A stretch of 64,000 nt of DNA from Clostridia bacterium (GCA_012720075.1 JAAXZE010000068.1:274-64273); one strand, 5' to 3'; positions 3,868 to 48,682 are shown, numbered from the stretch's first letter. Notes: generated from the sequence alone by a model not told the origin. Numbers and translations are program-made.

Positions 3868-4735
3868 AAAACGCGGCATCGGTGGCAGTGATGCTGCCGC
3901 TATTGCCGGTCTTTCTCCATGGAAATCACCCATAGCTGTATGGCTAGAGAAGACCAGTCAAGTTGAACCGGAAGAGCCAGGAGAAGCGGCTTACTGGGGG
4001 AAGGTGCTGGAGGATATTGTGGCGCAGGAGTTCGCCAAGCGGACCGGTTTCAAAGTCCGCCGGCGGAATGCGATTCTTCAACACCATGAGTATCCGTGGA
4101 TGATAGCCAACGTGGATAGGCTAGTAGTTGGCGATAACGCTGGCTTAGAATGCAAGACTACCAGTGCATTCAACGCTAAAGAATGGGAACAAGACGAAGT
4201 ACCGGCGCAGTATTTAGTTCAAGTCCAGCACTATATGGCAGTTACCGGTTACTCTGCTTGGTGGCTTGCGGTCCTAATCGGTGGCAATACATTTATCTAT
4301 AAGAAAATTGAACGGGATAATGAACTTATCCAGCAACTTATCGAGATTGAAAAAGACTTCTGGGAAAATCATGTTCTAGCCGGTGTTCCGCCGGAAATGG
4401 ACGGTTCCACGGCATCTACTGAACTCTTGCAACGTATGTATCCAGAAGGAAAACCAGCCGCAATAGATCTCCCTAGTGACGCAGGTGAATTGATAGAAAC
4501 CCTGGATTTTTTGAATGAGGAACTAAAAGCACTCGAAGAACGAAAAGCAGAATGTGAGAACCGGTTGAAAGCAATGTTGGGCGAGAATGAGGCAGGCCGG
4601 TTCGGTGAACGACTTGTTACATGGAAGAATATTGTGAGTAATCGATTTGACAGCAAAACTTTCGCTAAAGATTATCCAGAGCTATATGAGAAATACTTGA
4701 AAACATCTAAATACCGGAAATTTGCAGTGAAATAG
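3806..4735 (+). CDS. YqaJ-like viral recombinase-domain exonuclease
   Basis: RSEWLEYRKRGIGGSDAAAIAGLSPWKSP...LECKT is the YqaJ/lambda-Exo-type pattern. ATG 3806 follows GGAGGTGA. The track's 3626 start looks like an over-extension. Confidence 0.85.
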   Translation: MTAQVLVSTLDMERSEWLEYRKRGIGGSDAAAIAGLSPWKSPIAVWLEKTSQVEPEEPGEAAYWGKVLEDIVAQEFAKRTGFKVRRRNAILQHHEYPWMIANVDRLVVGDNAGLECKTTSAFNAKEWEQDEVPAQYLVQVQHYMAVTGYSAWWLAVLIGGNTFIYKKIERDNELIQQLIEIEKDFWENHVLAGVPPEMDGSTASTELLQRMYPEGKPAAIDLPSDAGELIETLDFLNEELKALEERKAECENRLKAMLGENEAGRFGERLVTWKNIVSNRFDSKTFAKDYPELYEKYLKTSKYRKFAVK

Positions 4736-4746
4736 GAGGGATGAAA

Positions 4747-5547
4747 ATGGCAACTAATGAAAGCCTGAAAAACCAATTGGCTCAGCGGAAAAACGGGGGT
4801 GTATCCCCGATAAGTGGGATAAAAGCGCTACTGAATTCGGATTCAGTCAAGAAGCGTTTTGAGGAAATTTTAGAAAAGCGCGCGCCACAATATATGTCAT
4901 CCATTATTAACCTCGTTAACTCGGATACCAACCTCCAAAAGTGTGACCCGATGTCTGTTATCTCGGCTGCGATGGTAGCCGCGACGTTAGATCTGCCGGT
5001 AGACAAAAACTTAGGCTATGCATGGGTTGTGCCTTACGGAAACAAGGCACAGTTCCAGCTTGGTTATAAAGGGTACGTACAGTTAGCCCTCAGAACAGGT
5101 AAGTATCGTTCTATCAACGCAATACCGATCAGGGAAGGCGAGCTGGTGAAGTGGAACCCACTCACGGAAGAATTGGAAGTTGACTTTGAACAGCGTAAAT
5201 CTGACGCAATCATCGGTTATGCTGGATACTTTGAGTTGGTGAATGGGTTCCGCAAAACCGTGTACTGGTCAAAAGAGGAAATTGAGGCCCATAGGAAGCG
5301 GTTTTCTAAGTCTGATTTTGGATGGAAGAACGATTATGATGCAATGGCCTTGAAAACGGTTATTCGGAACATGCTGAGTAAATGGGGCATTCTCTCAATC
5401 GAGATGCAAGAGGCGTATGTAAAAGACATTGAACAAGACGAAGTTCAAGAAAAGCCAAATGATGAGCAATACATTGATGCTGAATATGTTTTCGAGGATG
5501 AGGACGAAGAAAAAGATACTGAACCAGTACAACAGACACTAGTTTAA
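4747..5547 (+). CDS. recT: RecT-family single-strand annealing protein
   Basis: LGYAWVVPYGNKAQFQLGYKGYVQLALRTGKY is RecT-like. Sits directly after the YqaJ-type exonuclease. Confidence 0.9.
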   Translation: MATNESLKNQLAQRKNGGVSPISGIKALLNSDSVKKRFEEILEKRAPQYMSSIINLVNSDTNLQKCDPMSVISAAMVAATLDLPVDKNLGYAWVVPYGNKAQFQLGYKGYVQLALRTGKYRSINAIPIREGELVKWNPLTEELEVDFEQRKSDAIIGYAGYFELVNGFRKTVYWSKEEIEAHRKRFSKSDFGWKNDYDAMALKTVIRNMLSKWGILSIEMQEAYVKDIEQDEVQEKPNDEQYIDAEYVFEDEDEEKDTEPVQQTLV

Positions 5548-33617: not shown

Positions 33618-33845
33618 ATGCAAGGATTTTGGAATGATCCAGACGGATTAACAGTTGTTGATATTCTTGCTATTACTCTCGGATTAGGTAGTTTTTTCTT
33701 GTATTGGAAACGCGGAACTATAGATGCCAATTTTGCGGATATAATTGTAGCTGTAATTTTGGCGGCTGCAGGACAAAAAGTTGGTGAAGGATGGGTAAAA
33801 GCAAAAGGTAAAGGGGGCAATGGTAATAATGGAAGTACAATTTAA
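33618..33845 (+). CDS. putative holin (2 TM)
   Basis: 75 aa with two hydrophobic helices and a Gly/Lys/Asn tail. Lies immediately before the endolysin. Confidence 0.55.
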   Translation: MQGFWNDPDGLTVVDILAITLGLGSFFLYWKRGTIDANFADIIVAVILAAAGQKVGEGWVKAKGKGGNGNNGSTI

Positions 33846-34602
33846 AGAAATGTTACTTAGTACAAGTGCAGGAGGTAGACCTGGTAAAAAGATAACCCCC
33901 AAAGCAGTAGTAGTGCATTGGACGGCTAACACTAATCCCGGTGCCAATGCACTAGCAAACAGGAATTATTTCAATAATTCCGGAGTGGCAGTCAGTGCTC
34001 ATTACATTGTGGATGACAAACAAATCATACAATGTATCCCAGAAAACGAAATGGCTTATCATGTTGGAGCAAAAAGTTATAAAGAAGATGCATTAAAAAA
34101 GTTATCTAGTTATCCAAATGACTGTACTATCGGTATTGAGATGTGTGTAAATAAAGATGGAAACTTCCAGAAAACTTATAAAAACACAGTATTTCTAGTC
34201 GCAAACATTCTTCGACATTATAGTTGGGGAATTAGTAACATTTGGAGACATTATGATATTACCGGCAAAGATTGCCCCAAATTTTTTGTAGATAATGGTA
34301 CAGCCAAGTTATATGGATTTAGTTCTGCCGCTAATGCTTGGGAGCAGTTTAAGGTTGATGTAAAACATGAACTTTTAGGAGGGGATAATGTGTTTATAGA
34401 TATGGTAAATCACTGGGCTAAAAAAGATATTGAAGAAGCAGCCAAACTGGGATTGGTAGGTGGAAAAACAGAAGATATGTTTGTTCCTGATGATAATATA
34501 ACAAGGGCAGAGAGCACGGTTGTTGATTTAAGGTTATATAAGTTATTGATGAGGCATATCGAGGAATTGCAAAAAGAAATTTTAGAATTAAAGAGGAGGT
34601 AA
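33829..34602 (+). CDS. N-acetylmuramoyl-L-alanine amidase endolysin with C-terminal SLH domain
   Basis: VVHWTANTNPGANA...AHYIVDD...AYHVG...NDCTIGIEMC is Amidase_2-like. The C-terminal WAKKDIEEAAKLGLVGGKTEDMFVPDDNITRAE is SLH-like. Confidence 0.85.
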   Translation: MEVQFKEMLLSTSAGGRPGKKITPKAVVVHWTANTNPGANALANRNYFNNSGVAVSAHYIVDDKQIIQCIPENEMAYHVGAKSYKEDALKKLSSYPNDCTIGIEMCVNKDGNFQKTYKNTVFLVANILRHYSWGISNIWRHYDITGKDCPKFFVDNGTAKLYGFSSAANAWEQFKVDVKHELLGGDNVFIDMVNHWAKKDIEEAAKLGLVGGKTEDMFVPDDNITRAESTVVDLRLYKLLMRHIEELQKEILELKRR

Positions 34603-34606
34603 TAGA

Positions 34607-34960
34607 ATGGAGAAAATGATTCTTGACTTACTATATAATATATTAATCTTATTTGCCACAGTAGTAGCTGGTTTTACAGTTGCGTGGATAAAGAAAAAAT
34701 TAGGCGTTGAAGGTATGAAGCGGATTGAAGCTGAGTTAGCCTTAAAACAAGAACTTGCTGCTTTGGCTGTTCGCTTTGTGGAGCAAGTTTATCGAGATTA
34801 TAAGGGCGAGGAGAAGTATAACAAAGCTGCAGAATGGTTGTCTAACCGGGTAGCAGAATTAGGATTAAAAATTACTCCTGATGAAATAAAGGGTCTAATA
34901 GAGGCAGCACTGCGGACATTTAAAGATGAGTTTGGACAGGAATGGGCGAAAAAAACATGA
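34607..34960 (+). CDS. LL-H-family holin-like protein
   Basis: N-terminal TM followed by ...KYNKAAEWLSNRVAELGLKITPDEIKGLIEAAL. Confidence 0.55.
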   Translation: MEKMILDLLYNILILFATVVAGFTVAWIKKKLGVEGMKRIEAELALKQELAALAVRFVEQVYRDYKGEEKYNKAAEWLSNRVAELGLKITPDEIKGLIEAALRTFKDEFGQEWAKKT

Positions 34961-35046: not shown

Positions 35047-35121
35047 ATTTTATGCCGATATTGATTAATATTAATTGTGGATTTAAACTGATACGGTTCA
35101 CCTCCACCAATATAAATATAT

Positions 35122-35196
35122 GGCGACATAGCCAAGTGGTAAGGCGAAGGACCGCAAGTCCTTGATCCCCTTGTTCGACTCAGGGTGTCGCCTCCA
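35122..35196 (+). tRNA. tRNA-Cys (anticodon GCA) with encoded CCA
   Basis: Hand fold: acceptor GGCGACA/TGTCGCC; D arm GCC-AAGTGGTAA-GGC; anticodon arm AAGGA-CCGCAAG-TCCTT; T arm CCTTG-TTCGACT-CAGGG. Position 33 is C rather than U. Confidence 0.8.
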
Positions 35197-35262
35197 AAAT
35201 TAGAGCCCAAGTTTGCTTTTTGAGCAGGCTTGGGCTCTTAAATTTACATCTTTTTCCTGATT
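35182..35262 (+). repeat. direct repeat A (tRNA-Cys 3' end + downstream terminator)
   Basis: About 75-80% identical by eye to 38513-38593. The first 20 nt, AGGGTGTCGCCTCCAAAATT, match 19/20. Confidence 0.8.
35202..35245 (+). terminator. hairpin terminator after tRNA-Cys
   Basis: agagcccaag...cttgggctct stem with a weak T-tract. Confidence 0.55.
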
Positions 35263-35344
35263 ATATGGGACGACTATAGTGCTTTCTTTGTCCAAAATGT
35301 ATTGTAATCCAAGATACTTCATTATTAAAAATAATATTAAGATA

Positions 35345-35373
35345 TTGACAAACCATAATTTGCCTCGTACAAT
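35345..35373 (+). promoter_or_regulatory. sigma-A-type promoter for the pfl leader
   Basis: TTGACA-N17-TACAAT. Confidence 0.55.
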
Positions 35374-35394
35374 ATAAGCAAATAATTGAAGAAA

Positions 35395-35472
35395 TCAGTT
35401 ACATGACTGGCGGGTTAGTGTGGAGCACCACAAAGGATTGTAACTGTTATTGAAAGCCGACCGCCTGGGCGA
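35395..35472 (+). promoter_or_regulatory. ZTP (pfl-motif) riboswitch aptamer
   Basis: GACTGGCGGGTTAGTGTGGAGCACCACAAAGGA ... CCGACCGCCTGGGCG matches the conserved pfl-motif cores (ACUGGCG, GGUGGA/ACCAC, CCGCCUGGGC). Confidence 0.75.
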
Positions 35473-35520
35473 TAACACAGTTTTATCTGTGCTATGTCCG
35501 GGTGGTTATTTTTTTACTTA
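35461..35520 (+). terminator. riboswitch expression platform (terminator)
   Basis: CCGCCTGG (pseudoknot strand) can pair with CCGGGTGG (35498-35505), followed by TTATTTTTTT. Confidence 0.6.
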
Positions 35521-35535
35521 AGGGGTGTATTAAGT

Positions 35536-37767
35536 ATGAGGAAAGAATGGCACGGTTTTAAAGGAGAAAAATGGCAAAAGGAAATTGATGTGAGGGATTT
35601 TATCATAAACAATTATTCACCTTACGCCGGCGATGACTCTTTCCTTTGCAGGGAAACAGAAAGAACAAAAAAGCTGTGGGAAAAATGCTTGGAACTCTTT
35701 AAGCAGGAAAGGGCTAAAGGAGGGGTCATTAGTATTGATACCTCCCGTGTTGCGGGCATTACTTCCCATGGACCTGGCTATATTTGCAAAGAGCTGGAAG
35801 TTATTGTGGGTTTACAAACCGAAAAACCCCTGGAACGGGCTGTTAACCCCTTCGGTGGGCTAAGAATGGCCAGGGAAGCCTGTAAGGCATATGGTTATTC
35901 CTTTGATGAACAGTTGGAGAAGATTTTTACCGATTATAGAAAAACTCATAATGACGGAGTTTTTGACGCCTATACCAGTGAAATGCGGATGGCCAGAAGT
36001 CTGGGTATTATTACCGGATTACCCGATGCCTATGGAAGAGGAAGGGTTATCGGCGATTATAGGAGAGTAGCTCTTTATGGTGTGGATAGACTCATCGCCG
36101 AAAAAGAGAATGATTTGCAGCGGATGTCTAAAGTAAGTATGAATTTTGAAACCATTCAGCTGAGAGAAGAAATCAGTGAACAAATAAAAGCATTACAGCT
36201 TTTAAAAGATATGGCCCTTCAATACGGTTTTGATATCAGCAACCCGGCTGCCAATGCCAGGGAGGCGTTTCAATGGGTATACTTTGCCTACCTTGCCGCT
36301 ATCAAAGAACAAAACGGAGCAGCCATGTCCCTGGGGCGTGTCAGCACTTTTCTTGATATTTATATCAACAGAGATATGGAAGCAGGTGTTTTATCAGAAA
36401 TCGAAGCCCAGGAACTGGTTGACCAGTTTGTTATAAAGCTTAGAATGGCACGGCAGTTAAGAACCCCTGATTATGACAAGTTATTTGCCGGGGATCCAAT
36501 GTGGATTACTGAAGCCATTGGCGGCATGGGGCTTGATGGCCGTACTTTGGTAACCAAGAACTCATTCAGATTTCTCCAGACTCTAATTAATCTCGGTCCT
36601 TCACCGGAACCGAATCTGACCGTATTATGGTCTACCCAATTACCGGAGAATTTTAAGAACTTTTGTTCAGCAATCTCCATTAAAACCAGCTCTATCCAAT
36701 ATGAAAATGACGATCTAATGCGCGGCCTGTATGGGGATGACTACGGTATTGCTTGCTGTGTATCTGCTATGAAGCTGGTAAAACAAATGCAATTTTTCGG
36801 GGCTCGGGCCAATCTGCCCAAATTATTATTGCTGGCTGTTAATGGAGGCAGGGATGAAATAACCGGTAAACAATTGGCACCTGTTGTTCCGATCTTGAAT
36901 GATGAGGTTTTAGACTATGAAAAGGTTATGAGCAATTTAGCCGTTCTCCAGGATTGGCTGTGCGGTTTGTATGTAAATACTATGAACATTATTCATTACA
37001 TGCACGATAAGTATGCCTATGAAAAAATTCAAATGGCTCTCCATGATAGCTCTGTCGAAAGGCTGATGGCCTTTGGTATAGCCGGTTTGTCGGTCATTGT
37101 CGATTCCTTAAGCGCCATTAAGTACGCCAAAGTTTACCCGGTTAGAAATGATGAGGGCATTACGGTGGACTTTAAAATTGAAGGTGATTTTCCTAAATTC
37201 GGTAATGATGACGACAGGGTTGACAATATTGCTGTTGAACTGGTCAAGAGTTTTAGCAAAAACCTGGAAAAGTACCCGACTTACCGTGGAGCTAAGCATA
37301 CACTCTCCATATTAACCATAACCTCTAACGTAATGTATGGCAAAAAAACCGGTGCGACACCGGACGGCAGAAAACATGGTGAGCCCTTTGCCCCAGGAGC
37401 TAATCCCATGCATGGCAGGGATACCAACGGCGCCCTTGCCAGTCTGAACTCGGTGGCAAAACTTCCTTATGATGCCTGCCTTGACGGGATAAGCAATACC
37501 TTTTCCATAGTACCGAGAGCTCTGGGGAAAAATTATGATGAAAGAAGAAATAACTTAATGAATATTCTTGACGGATACTTTGGTCAGGGCGCCCATCATT
37601 TAAACGTTAACGTTCTTGACCGGGAAACCTTGATAAAAGCCATGGATGAGCCGGAAAACTATCCTCAGTTAACTGTCAGGGTATCCGGGTATGCGGTGCA
37701 TTTTACTAAACTAAGCCGCGCCCACCAGCAGGAAATCATCCAGCGAACCTTCTTTGAAAAATTTTAA
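35536..37767 (+). CDS. pflB: pyruvate formate-lyase (glycyl radical enzyme)
   Basis: GIACCVSAM active-site Cys pair and RVSGYAVHF glycyl-radical motif. ATG 35536 follows AAGGGGTG. The track start at 35494 lies inside the terminator. Confidence 0.95.
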
Positions 37768-37782
37768 TCCGGAGGGAAACTT

Positions 37783-38514
37783 ATGACGGGCAGAATTCAT
37801 TCCATTGAGAGCTGCGGTACCTTGGACGGTCCGGGATTGCGCTGTGTTGTTTTCTTTCAGGGCTGTCCCCTCAGATGTCGCTATTGTCATAACCCGGATA
37901 CTTGGGATTTTAACGGTGGGCTGGAAGTGACCTCCTCGGAAATAGTTAAAAAAATTATCCGCTTCAAACCCTATTTTAAGCAGAATGGCGGTGTAACCTT
38001 ATCCGGGGGGGAACCCTTATTGCAGCCGGAATTTGCAGCCGAAATTTTACGGGAATGCAAAAGAAACGGAATTCACACAGCGGTGGATACTTCCGGCTGG
38101 GTTAGTACCGCGGCCCTGGAACATACACTGCCCTATACCGATTTGCTGCTTTTAGATGTAAAAGGGCTGGATAACAAAATGTATCAGTGGCTCACCGGCA
38201 AAGAAGAGGATATGTTTTTTTCTGCCCTTACAACCATAAAAAAATACAAAACTCCCCTCTGGCTTAGATATGTAATTTTGCCAGGCATTAACGATACTCC
38301 TGAGTATATTGGTAAACTAAAGATTTTAGCTTCTTCTTTGGGTAGTATGGTTCAGAAAATAGAACTATTGCCTTATCACCCCCTGGGAGAACACAAGTGG
38401 AAAAAATTAGGGTATGAATATACGCTGAGTCAGATAAATCCACCTAAGGACAGTGACATTGACCTTTTGTACCAAAAACTCCGCAAAAACAGTCCTGTTA
38501 TAAATTTTTCTTAG
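37783..38514 (+). CDS. pflA: pyruvate formate-lyase activating enzyme (radical SAM)
   Basis: GCPLRCRYCHNPDTW CxxxCxxC motif. TLSGGEPLLQ. Confidence 0.95.
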   Translation: MTGRIHSIESCGTLDGPGLRCVVFFQGCPLRCRYCHNPDTWDFNGGLEVTSSEIVKKIIRFKPYFKQNGGVTLSGGEPLLQPEFAAEILRECKRNGIHTAVDTSGWVSTAALEHTLPYTDLLLLDVKGLDNKMYQWLTGKEEDMFFSALTTIKKYKTPLWLRYVILPGINDTPEYIGKLKILASSLGSMVQKIELLPYHPLGEHKWKKLGYEYTLSQINPPKDSDIDLLYQKLRKNSPVINFS

Positions 38515-38593
38515 GGTTTCGCCTCCAAAATTTAAACCCAGGTTTGCTTAAAAGCAAGCTTGGGCTTTTTTATTTACATATCTTTTCCCGAAG
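38513..38593 (+). repeat. direct repeat B (diverged copy of the tRNA-Cys 3' end + terminator)
   Basis: AGGGTTTCGCCTCCAAAATT plus the hairpin aacccaggtttgctt/aagcaagcttgggctt plus atttacat..cttttcc, parallel to repeat A. Doubles as the pflA terminator. Confidence 0.8.
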
Positions 38594-38640
38594 GGAAATA
38601 TAATTAAACTATTAACGAAAGTCAGTTTGCAGGGGGATTT

Positions 38641-39318
38641 ATGAAAGAAGTCGGCAGCCCTTTAAAAATATTGACTTATAATATCCATAGCGGCAAAAAT
38701 ATCTGGATGCAGCCTACCCTTGACGCCATCATTGATTATCTCCAAAGTACACAAGGGGATGTCGTCTGTCTCCAAGAAATCAATGAAAATGAAAAAAGAG
38801 GATTCCAGGTTAGTAAAATAAAAAATAGTTTACAAAAAGATTGTATCTTTGCCCCTAATGTCTCCATTGGCAAAGGTCATTACGGATTGGCTGTTTTTAC
38901 GTCCCTTCCAATACTAGAGTACCATCATATTCTTCTGCCCAGCGCCAAGGAGCAAAGGGGTTTATTGCATACCGTACTTCAAGTGGAAAAACAGGAATTG
39001 CATGTTCTCAATACCCATTTAGGTTTAAGTAAAGCTGAACGGGCAAGGCAACTGGAATTTATCGACGCTTATATTTCCAAATTAAAGGCAAACATCATTC
39101 TTGCAGGGGATTTTAATACTACCAAACCGGAATTAGGGAGCTTGCCGTTATTGGATGTGGGGGAAATTGCGGGGAAAGCCCATATTCCCACTTTTATACC
39201 AAATCCTAAAAGAATAGATTTGGTTTTTATTTCACCAACCGTAAGGGTAGTTAATTATCAGGTTTCCGATGTCAAGCTGTCGGACCATTATCCTATTGAG
39301 GTAAGTGTGCTGATTTAA
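38641..39318 (+). CDS. endonuclease/exonuclease/phosphatase (EEP) family protein
   Basis: LKILTYNIHSG...VVCLQE...LNTHL...GDFN...SDHYPI are EEP catalytic motifs. Confidence 0.8.
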   Translation: MKEVGSPLKILTYNIHSGKNIWMQPTLDAIIDYLQSTQGDVVCLQEINENEKRGFQVSKIKNSLQKDCIFAPNVSIGKGHYGLAVFTSLPILEYHHILLPSAKEQRGLLHTVLQVEKQELHVLNTHLGLSKAERARQLEFIDAYISKLKANIILAGDFNTTKPELGSLPLLDVGEIAGKAHIPTFIPNPKRIDLVFISPTVRVVNYQVSDVKLSDHYPIEVSVLI

Positions 39319-39353
39319 GAGACTTAATAAATAATATTAACAGATCGGGGGGA

Positions 39354-39830
39354 TTGATCTTCGATATTTTGTCTCACGGATTATGGGGAGGAATAATTTT
39401 CAGAAAGGGCAGTCCTTATTGGCTGGCTTTCGCTTTCGGAGTTTTACCCGATGCACTGGCTTTCGGTCCCCTGGTAGTTTTAAGGATGACGGCAGGAGAA
39501 CTGGTTATGGGCAGGCCGGGATTAAATACAATTCCCCCTTGGGTTTATACTGTATATAACTGGACCCATAGCCTGGTTATCGCTGCAGTGGCTATAATTA
39601 TCCTGTGGCAAATAAATCGAAAGCCGGCTATAGCTGCCGGTGCCTGGGTCTTACATATCCTTATGGATATTCCTGTCCATACTCAAGATTATTTCCCGAC
39701 CTCTTTTCTATATCCCCTGAGCCCTTTTACTTTTAACGGTATAAGTTCTATTAAGTTATGGGCGGTCAATTGGCTTTTATTGATACTTGCTTACATTTTC
39801 TTTCATTTCAGAAAAAGCTCACTAAGATAA
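39354..39830 (+). CDS. integral membrane protein (4-5 TM), possible membrane-bound hydrolase family
   Basis: Hydrophobic 158-aa ORF with conserved His residues (SHGLWGG, THS, HILMDIPVH). TTG start is uncertain. Confidence 0.55.
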   Translation: MIFDILSHGLWGGIIFRKGSPYWLAFAFGVLPDALAFGPLVVLRMTAGELVMGRPGLNTIPPWVYTVYNWTHSLVIAAVAIIILWQINRKPAIAAGAWVLHILMDIPVHTQDYFPTSFLYPLSPFTFNGISSIKLWAVNWLLLILAYIFFHFRKSSLR

Positions 39831-47619: not shown

Positions 47620-47677
47620 CAAATGTATTTATTTTTGTAAATTTTTGATTTATAATTGACATAAAATGAATATTTAA

Positions 47678-47776
47678 CAATTACTAGGGGAGCGAAATGC
47701 TGAGAAGGCCTTGTACTGTTAAAAGGCCTGACCCTTTGAACCTGTTTGGGTAATACCAGCGTAGGAAAGTAATTGT
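47678..47776 (+). promoter_or_regulatory. TPP (THI-box) riboswitch
   Basis: CTAGGGGAGC...GCTGAGA...CTGACCCTTTGAACCTG...GGTAATACCAGCGTAGGAA. P1 pairs caattac with gtaattg. Confidence 0.9.
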
Positions 47777-47791
47777 ATCTTTTTTTAAAGA

Positions 47792-47826: not shown

Positions 47827-47893
47827 TCCCAACGAGTTTACTATTGTTCTACGGAAAACTTTCTGTAGTTAATTGTCGGAAGGGAGGATATTT

Positions 47894-48682
47894 ATGAAAA
47901 ATGTATTAACTATTGCCGGCTCAGATTCCTGCGGAGGCGCGGGAATTCAGGCCGATCTCAAAACCTTTAGCGCTTTGGGAACATATGGCATGAGTGTAAT
48001 AACGGCTATTACCGCCCAAAATACCATGGGGGTATTCAATGTCCGGGAAATGGATTCGGAAATTATCCGGGACCAGATTAACTGCTTATTTGATGATATT
48101 GAAATTCATGCCATAAAAATCGGTATGGTATCCAGCATTGAAATTATTGAAACCATTGGGAGCTGTCTCAGGAAGCACGCTTATAAAAAAATAGTGCTGG
48201 ACCCGGTGATGGTTTCCAAAAGCGGATGCAACCTCTTACAGCCGGAGGCTAAGAACAAGCTAATCGAAGTTTTGTTTCCCCTGGCCTTGGTAGTGACGCC
48301 CAATTTGCCTGAAGCCGAGGTAATCCTTGAAAGGAAAATAGAAAACATAGATGATATGAAGGAGGCGGCAATCCAAATTCACAAGCTGGGACCCCAAAAT
48401 GTTGTTGTTAAAGGCGGTCATTTGGCTGATGGCGCTACCGATGTTTTCTACGATGGACAAGATTTTACCTTTCTGGAAGGGAAAAAAATTAATACTAAAA
48501 ACACTCATGGCACCGGATGTACCTTTTCTTCCGCTATTGCAGCTTATATTGCTCAAGACTATCCGGTAGTAGAAGCTGTTAAGGCGGCTAAGAAATATAT
48601 CCAGGGAGCCATTGAAAATTCTTTCCCGTTAGGTCATGGGGTCGGTCCTACCAATCACTTCTTTAATTTCAAGTTTAAGTAG
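47894..48682 (+). CDS. thiD: hydroxymethylpyrimidine/phosphomethylpyrimidine kinase
   Basis: VLTIAGSDSCGGAGIQADLKTF...DPVMVSKSG...THGTGCTFSSAIAA. Confidence 0.9.
   Translation: MKNVLTIAGSDSCGGAGIQADLKTFSALGTYGMSVITAITAQNTMGVFNVREMDSEIIRDQINCLFDDIEIHAIKIGMVSSIEIIETIGSCLRKHAYKKIVLDPVMVSKSGCNLLQPEAKNKLIEVLFPLALVVTPNLPEAEVILERKIENIDDMKEAAIQIHKLGPQNVVVKGGHLADGATDVFYDGQDFTFLEGKKINTKNTHGTGCTFSSAIAAYIAQDYPVVEAVKAAKKYIQGAIENSFPLGHGVGPTNHFFNFKFK

Follow-up and report, generated by a model that had tools for sequence, protein, structure and literature searches.

The names reportedly attached to genomic islands in tRNA and transfer-messenger RNA (tmRNA) genes are Reiter (1989) and Williams (2002). Here we describe a 64,000-nt stretch of DNA (JAAXZE010000068.1; hereafter the window) from the metagenome-assembled genome (MAG) of an uncultured member of the Clostridia with few relatives, in which an operon for pyruvate formate-lyase (PFL) and its activase, pflBA, lies together with its riboswitch between two diverged copies of the 3’ end of a tRNA-Cys gene. 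Among islands in tRNA genes (tDNAs) catalogued as Islander islands, 3760 of 3919 carry a directly oriented 3’ fragment as the displaced piece, the T-loop/T-stem is one of two canonical crossover sub-locations (the other is the anticodon loop; the T-stem class holds 1836 of the 3919 islands), and ssrA, the tmRNA gene, is the most enriched target (PMC4383910). The same geometry is given as standard for tRNA-gene islands in a second source (PMC9897764). A further category is the cis-mobilizable element (CIME), a decayed integrative and conjugative element (ICE) or integrative and mobilizable element (IME) that keeps attL and attR but no longer carries its genes for integration and transfer (PMC5704250).

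The pfl locus resembles Islander islands in its regenerated intact tRNA, in a displaced direct 3’ fragment whose similarity sets in within the T-loop/T-stem region, in an empty site in a relative, and in cargo with a horizontal history. It differs from them in lacking an integrase, so that it would fail the Islander integrase filter, in its very small size (3.3 kb, a single operon of host-like composition), and in a repeat of only 79% identity that runs on for 64 nt beyond the tRNA and takes in its terminator. As in CIMEs, att-like direct repeats enclose it at a target gene’s 3’ end, its cargo is unaccompanied by recombinase or transfer genes, and its movement between lineages fits mobilisation in trans or accretion. 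Unlike CIMEs, it had no cognate ICE, IME or integrase of tRNA-Cys specificity among the viral contigs, plasmids and phages searched, and it holds no remnants of a parent element; its repeats are putative att sites. Because the integrase is missing and the block holds only an operon, CIME is the closest named category. The comparisons below suggest that the block is probably, though by no means certainly, a decayed, CIME-like pflBA islet without an integrase that originated site-specifically at the tRNA-Cys 3’ end.

A duplicated tRNA-Cys 3’ end and terminator

Local alignment of the two repeats, A within and behind tRNA-Cys and B behind pflBA (Table 1), gave 66 identical columns of 83 (79.5%) over 82 bp, collinear throughout with 2 indels. 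The alignment scored 77, whereas 300 shuffles averaged 21.3 (standard deviation 2.5, maximum 33). Repeat A comprises, in order, the last 2 nt of the T-loop, the 3’ strand of the T-stem, the 3’ strand of the acceptor stem, CCA, a hairpin and a 22-nt tail; it provides the 3’ terminus of the tRNA gene, the acceptor stem of which is intact and the final 15 nt of which are AGGGTGTCGCCTCCA. Repeat B begins within the last codons and TAG stop of pflA, where positions 38510-38527 match tRNA positions 58-75 on the same strand at 16 of 18, and the collinearity continues for 64 nt further. The two changes in this tRNA-derived part are a C to T that creates the stop (CTCAGGG in the tRNA, CTTAGGG in B; CAG to TAG) and a G to T that breaks acceptor pair 6-67. 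The end of the PflA reading frame (window 38506-38514) may be encoded by former tRNA sequence.

A sequence-only reading of this DNA had described a direct repeat at 35182-35262 and 38513-38593, alike at 19 of its first 20 nt, some 75-80% identical by eye, with partly compensatory changes in the hairpin and with a second copy starting at the pflA stop. The repeat is real, although formal alignment sets both copies slightly wider (Table 1), and the remaining particulars hold, the 19 of 20 included, with the pflA TAG codon lying within B. The hairpins of A and B differ by 1 fully compensatory pair and 2 one-sided G-U changes, and across 7 copies from several genomes compensatory double changes occur in 4 of 14 stem pairs.

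The empty site and the original copy

The nearest relative recovered, a 1868-bp metagenomic contig (L034) from read set ERR6160970, carries without interruption a tmRNA (Rfam, 137 bits), a 12-nt spacer, tRNA-Cys, the hairpin, the start codon of an EEP-family gene (Pfam Exo_endo_phos), and unk150, a homolog of the 158-aa gene of unknown function in the window (unk158). There is no pflBA, and the hairpin and EEP directly follow tRNA-Cys, as in the empty site that the sequence-only reading had proposed to look for. Identity to the window proteins is 74% for EEP and 78% for unk150. The flank 3’ of B (38592-38640, 49 nt) is 78% identical to L034 and collinear with it up to the EEP ATG, whereas the flank 3’ of A is unrelated to L034 (43%). 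From this flank, and from the change in B that breaks pair 6-67, it follows on comparative evidence that B is the displaced original tRNA-Cys 3’ end, terminator and EEP leader, and that A is the replacement that completes the tRNA.

A metagenome scan for this tRNA-Cys recovered two further lineages, with tmRNA, tRNA-Cys and hairpin in L046 and with tRNA-Pro, tRNA-Cys and hairpin in L045/L047; in each a homologous hairpin immediately follows the tRNA, and the native-locus hairpins of L034, L046 and L045/L047 are 60-77% identical. Judged from these contigs, the clade conserves the tRNA-Cys 3’ end together with its terminator as a native unit, which is why the repeat extends past the tRNA. As a separate observation, the anticodon loop of this tRNA-Cys, CCGCAAG, is unusual: position 33 holds C instead of the nearly universal U, and C32 could pair with G38. 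This loop is kept in 4 lineages (the window; L034, 277-351; L046, 139-213 on the minus strand; L045, 3898-3972), always with the same hairpin directly 3’ of the gene, and a search of the literature on C33 tRNA-Cys found nothing specific.

It is very improbable that the repeat has nothing to do with the arrival of pflBA, either as a member of a dispersed terminator family resembling repetitive extragenic palindromes (REP-like) or as a tandem duplication in which pflBA later landed by chance. We built an nhmmer profile from 4 copies of the repeat and ran it on the window and on about 0.6 Mb of other fetched loci. In the 64 kb it matched A and B only (E about 1e-14), and its other significant matches all fell on the terminators of native tRNA-Cys genes or on the one behind pflA at this locus. 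The dispersal that the sequence-only reading had named as the danger to its own proposal was thus not found, apart from 1 weak match in L034. That match (1762-1804, E = 0.0012), to a hairpin 3’ of unk150, and another to a hairpin of a second relative, L041 (5011-5057, E = 0.04-0.2), would suit a dispersed hairpin family, but the similarity of the L041 hairpin to A and B is not significant; tried as a left-hand repeat for L041, it scored 23-25 against them, with a shuffle maximum of 28-31. The 18 nt of tRNA sequence in B, 16 of them identical, would have no place in a terminator family, and a tandem duplication requires the extra coincidence of an insertion placed exactly between the copies and ending at the pflA stop.

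Horizontal history of pflBA

The closest pflB (93% amino acid identity) is on L041/L042, L041 being a metagenomic contig. The read sets for the L041 species and the window species are SRR31940684 and SRR31940690, respectively, apparently from one study. Downstream of pflBA, L041 carries HCDH, DUF2225, YebC and DUF401 and is syntenic with the window from 39937 onward; EEP-unk158 is absent, and the order there is pflA, hairpin, HCDH. In one non-coding segment common to all three, the window is 68% identical to L034 and 47% identical to L041, and L034, which has no pfl, is therefore the closer relative. Identity between the window and L041 is 44% over 35261-35337, upstream of the shared block; it rises to 89% in the promoter, 89% in the riboswitch, 81% in the leader, 90% in pflB and 88% in pflA, and then falls exactly at the pflA stop, with 35% in the tRNA-derived part of B, 73% in the hairpin and 45% in the tail.

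The proportion of synonymous differences (pS) between the window and L041 is 0.347 for the cassette (95% confidence interval (CI) 0.305-0.383) and 0.671 for 6 flanking syntenic genes (95% CI 0.634-0.703); between the window and L034 it is 0.479 (95% CI 0.410-0.551). Because the effective numbers of codons (ENC) are alike (51-52 vs 46-55), codon bias is not the cause of the gap. The cassette coalesces after the split of the window and L034, and at least one horizontal event is therefore required. On these divergence estimates, the cassette is horizontally moved.

These data also bear on polarity. The order tRNA-Cys, A, pflBA, B could have been ancestral to the three lineages, with L034 losing pflBA by recombination between A and B and with the low synonymous divergence (dS) of the cassette produced by later allelic replacement between lineages. 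On the tree ((window, L034), L041), 1 loss is as parsimonious as 2 gains; at the few positions that distinguish A from B, the L034 hairpin agrees with A in its 5’ arm and with B in its 3’ arm; and decay has gone further in the L041 counterpart of B (B’) than in B itself, which may point to an old insertion in L041. We nevertheless regard this polarity as unlikely. Comparison with the outgroups (L046, L045 and L041 B’) places the private changes in A and in B and leaves L034 with the ancestral states, which makes a chimera of A and B at the L034 site unnecessary. Moreover, with a pS of 0.35 for the cassette, below the 0.48 between the window and L034, a horizontal event after the split is still needed. 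This polarity takes three events, an old gain followed by a loss and a replacement, where one or two would otherwise do.

Beyond these contigs, pflB is 88% identical to that of Desulforamulus ferrireducens, compared with 67-70% for generic Firmicutes. YebC, too conserved to serve as a probe for relatives (80-85% to many Bacilli and Clostridia) and used only as a contrast to pflB, had no match above 85% besides the source MAG’s own protein and no Desulforamulus in its top 120; the best named matches of EEP were at 60-61%, none of them Desulforamulus. In Desulforamulus-like genomes the riboswitch-pflBA unit occurs in 3 different contexts, in none of which did we find a tRNA, a tRNA-Cys fragment or a B-like hairpin at pflBA. 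Its varied placement in these genomes suggests frequent relocation of the riboswitch together with its two genes. The D. ferrireducens unit (CP019698.1; L043, 14967-20802) lies a few kb from 2 DDE transposase genes and an HNH gene.

Site-specific integration or homologous recombination

In the account that we favour, the ancestral order would have been tmRNA, tRNA-Cys, terminator hairpin, EEP. Incoming DNA would have recombined at or near the T-loop of tRNA-Cys and brought its own tRNA 3’ end and terminator (A), which would now complete and terminate the tRNA, while the original 3’ end, terminator and EEP leader (B) would have been pushed 3.3 kb downstream, the tRNA-derived part then decaying. 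The likeliest enzyme would be a tyrosine integrase that targets tRNA genes, supplied in trans or by a larger element of which decay has left only the cargo. A site-specific origin is favoured because the edge of the repeat coincides with a canonical crossover sub-location and because the identity with L041 collapses at the left edge of the repeat. The similarity sets in with the final 2 nt of the T-loop, which would fit the T-stem class, but pflA coding DNA adjoins B on the left, so that the crossover point is not fixable. The footprint of integration at a tRNA gene, proposed in the sequence-only reading, has thus gained an empty site, a non-dispersed repeat and a horizontally moved cassette; the site-specific recombination itself we infer, as we do the recombinase and the direction and number of transfers.

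Homologous recombination, dependent on RecA and requiring no site-specific recombinase, could also have integrated a circular or linear DNA in which pflBA lay beside a copy of the tRNA-Cys 3’ end and terminator, whether by a Campbell-type event or by allelic transfer from a relative in which the insertion was already present. The length of the repeat (82 bp), which spans the terminator too, would suit such an origin, but a substrate of 82 bp with under 80% identity suits RecA poorly. The conserved tRNA-Cys and hairpin unit of L034, L046 and L045/L047 offers homology across lineages, no integrase is present, and the cassette has been exchanged between lineages at the same locus; the drop in L041 identity at the extreme left edge of the repeat nevertheless fits a fixed crossover better than scattered ones, and that edge coincides with the T-loop/T-stem sub-location of tDNA integrases. 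Homologous recombination alone also leaves the origin of the first duplication unexplained. We consider it the main rival, possible but doubtful.

Several results weigh against a site-specific origin. Neither an integrase, as the sequence-only reading had stated, nor a remnant of one lies in or beside the 3.3-kb block; the only open reading frames (ORFs) between A and B are pflB and pflA, and Pfam searches found no recombinase domain in flanking genes up to 44 kb. The repeat, reaching 64 nt past the tRNA through the terminator at 79% identity, exceeds a typical att core in both length and divergence. Since identity after CCA is much the same (74-77%) between any two of A, B and the L034 ortholog, the foreignness of A cannot be demonstrated. 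Only two relatives, L034 and L041, were informative, both of them metagenomic contigs, and because the left junction of L041 differs from that of the window and its contig has no tRNA-Cys, the window and L041 share no complete element. Comparison of GC content and codon usage between pflBA and its flanks, suggested in the sequence-only reading, gave no signal: in GC, GC at third codon positions (GC3, z 1.0-1.2) and codon usage pflBA resembles the host, and its Karlin distance falls inside the range of the host. Finally, viral contigs, plasmids and phages searched for a donor or a close cassette gave only generic pflB homology (58-67%). A scan of viral contigs with the tRNA-Cys 3’ 17-mer returned 3 chance matches inside GC-rich coding DNA.

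L041 carries on its minus strand (4138-4752) the C-terminal fragment of a large serine recombinase (phrog_95 377-579 of 651; Zn_ribbon_recom), 530 bp upstream of the pfl cassette, beside a DUF4314 phage/ICE gene and outside the shared block. The fragment marks mobile-element decay at that junction and does not explain the duplication of the tRNA 3’ end.

A wider reading, which we consider quite unlikely, would make the tRNA-Cys 3’ end plus terminator a portable att or homology handle, by which minimal, riboswitch-regulated and recombinase-less cassettes running from promoter to stop would move between genera and modules (pflBA, then EEP-unk158) would pile up 3’ of tRNA-Cys, each with a decaying handle at its edge. 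Integrases supplied in trans, or homologous recombination alone, would move them, and the result would resemble a tDNA-anchored cassette array.

Genes and regulatory elements of the locus

All of the components named in the sequence-only reading (tRNA-Cys, ZTP riboswitch, pflB and pflA) are present. ZTP and ZMP are the 5-aminoimidazole-4-carboxamide riboside 5’-triphosphate and 5’-monophosphate, a signal of 10-formyl-tetrahydrofolate (10-formyl-THF) shortage. In the ZTP riboswitch class, ligand binding blocks termination and turns pflBA on, supplying formate for 10-formyl-THF synthesis. As a ZTP-riboswitch pfl operon should, the locus has an RF01750 match above threshold, a terminator platform, and PFL and activase genes downstream; the 5’ arm of the terminator overlaps the 3’ strand of the aptamer, as an ON switch would have it. 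The promoter is strong, the block of high identity with L041 starts about 10-20 nt upstream of it (~35322-35338), and only 85 nt of unassigned DNA separate it from A. The pflB start lies behind an AAGGGG ribosome-binding site, with the longest ORF running from 35494. PflA ends in VINFS, compared with VISA in the Desulforamulus ortholog.

The cassette functions as an autonomous operon, in which ZTP or ZMP would prevent the leader terminator from forming and so switch on formate production by PFL, and the displaced tRNA terminator B would now end the pflBA operon. The same aptamer, terminator platform and pflB-pflA order are found in D. ferrireducens and L041 as in the ZTP riboswitch-pflBA operons of Clostridia (RF01750); the operon here is ordinary, and its location inside a tRNA-derived repeat alone is special.

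Table 1. Coordinates of features in the 64,000-nt window.
Feature	Position	Strand	Basis and remarks
Siphovirus-type prophage, at least 35 kb	1-35097	+	HTH, YqaJ, RecT, G39P, TerL gpA, lambda-type portal, tape-measure (Pfam)
Prophage Amidase_2+SLH and holin	33820-34960	+	Pfam
Displaced tmRNA 3’ end TCACCTCCACCA, prophage right junction (attR-type)	35098-35109	+	12 nt before tRNA-Cys
tRNA-Cys(GCA)	35122-35196	+	ARAGORN; Rfam tRNA, 53.8 bits, with alignment
Repeat A (putatively attL-type)	35179-35260	+	Local alignment with B; fold z = -6.1
Hairpin of A	35202-35238	+	17 bp, -29 kcal/mol
Inserted unit (promoter, ZTP riboswitch, pflB, pflA)	~35322-38514	+
Sigma-70-type promoter TTGACA-17-TACAAT	35345-35373	+	Promoter scan, 11/12 matches
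ZMP/ZTP riboswitch aptamer	35393-35477	+	Rfam RF01750, 59.5 bits (threshold 39), full length 1-86
Expression platform	35459-35516	+	Terminator hairpin 35459-35507 + U7; -34.3 kcal/mol, z = -3.8
pflB, pyruvate formate-lyase, 743 aa	35536-37767	+	Pfam PFL-like, Gly_radical
pflA, PFL-activating radical-SAM enzyme	37783-38514	+	Pfam Radical_SAM, Fer4_12
Repeat B (putatively attR-type)	38510-38591	+	Alignment with A
Hairpin of B	38537-38564	+	-18.7 kcal/mol; T-run next; called a canonical terminator
EEP-family gene	38641-39318	+	Pfam Exo_endo_phos
EEP + unk158 module	38641-39830	+	Original downstream neighbour of tRNA-Cys
unk158, unknown 158-aa gene	39354-39830	+

The EEP-unk158 module may itself be an older module at the same tRNA-Cys site. 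Together with the weak profile match 3’ of unk150, EEP-unk150 of L034 is flanked by related hairpins on both sides. We found no significant direct repeat around EEP-unk158 in the window, a short AT-rich one in the window and L034 being insignificant. GTDB species representatives reached through EEP alignment (30 loci) had synteny beyond EEP in no case and were uninformative on the site, and the contexts of two other EEP homologs (P0003 and P0006) were unrelated to the window locus. In five Brevibacillus loci (L021, L027, L028, L029 and L030), distant EEP homologs adjoin tRNA clusters on the opposite strand, and tRNA-Cys is among the cluster members in L027, L029 and L030; this proximity of EEP to tRNAs is probably incidental. 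Further downstream, a thiamine pyrophosphate (TPP) riboswitch (47676-47784, 76.5 bits) upstream of an ORF at 47873-48682 has no relation to the islet.

The neighbouring prophage

The prophage upstream of tRNA-Cys appears, from the sequence of its junction, to be integrated in the 3’ end of the tmRNA gene and not in tRNA-Cys; its left end, where the integrase and an intact tmRNA would lie, is outside the window. L034 and L046 have an intact tmRNA that ends in CCCCTCACCTCCACCA, 12-14 nt upstream of the orthologous tRNA-Cys. The exact 12-mer of the tmRNA remnant is unique in the window, and L001, a contig of the same species, begins one base into the remnant, at window position 35099. The sequence-only reading had the prophage ending about 80 nt upstream of the tRNA and took tRNA-Cys as a hotspot shared by both insertions. 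Neither point survives: the junction is the tmRNA remnant itself, 12 nt upstream, and tmRNA and tRNA-Cys are two adjacent tDNA targets, each hit once. Like prophages in ssrA, this 35-kb neighbour ends at a 12-nt displaced tmRNA 3’ fragment where relatives have an intact tmRNA; its insertion is an event and a target separate from the pfl islet, and its integrase end is outside the window. Its GC3 is 0.30, compared with 0.40 for host genes.

Significance

The pfl islet is a known kind of feature, an ordinary genomic islet reduced to its cargo, and challenges no current model. It offers a clean, minimal example of a self-regulating metabolic operon grafted at a tRNA gene with harm to neither party, in which the tRNA would receive a fresh 3’ end and terminator from the incoming DNA and its old terminator, once displaced, would be re-used for the end of the operon. 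Islets stripped down in this way would be missed by the integrase filter of island finders. For the biology of the wider group, the comparisons indicate that pflBA and its ZTP riboswitch travel as a unit among anaerobic Firmicutes.

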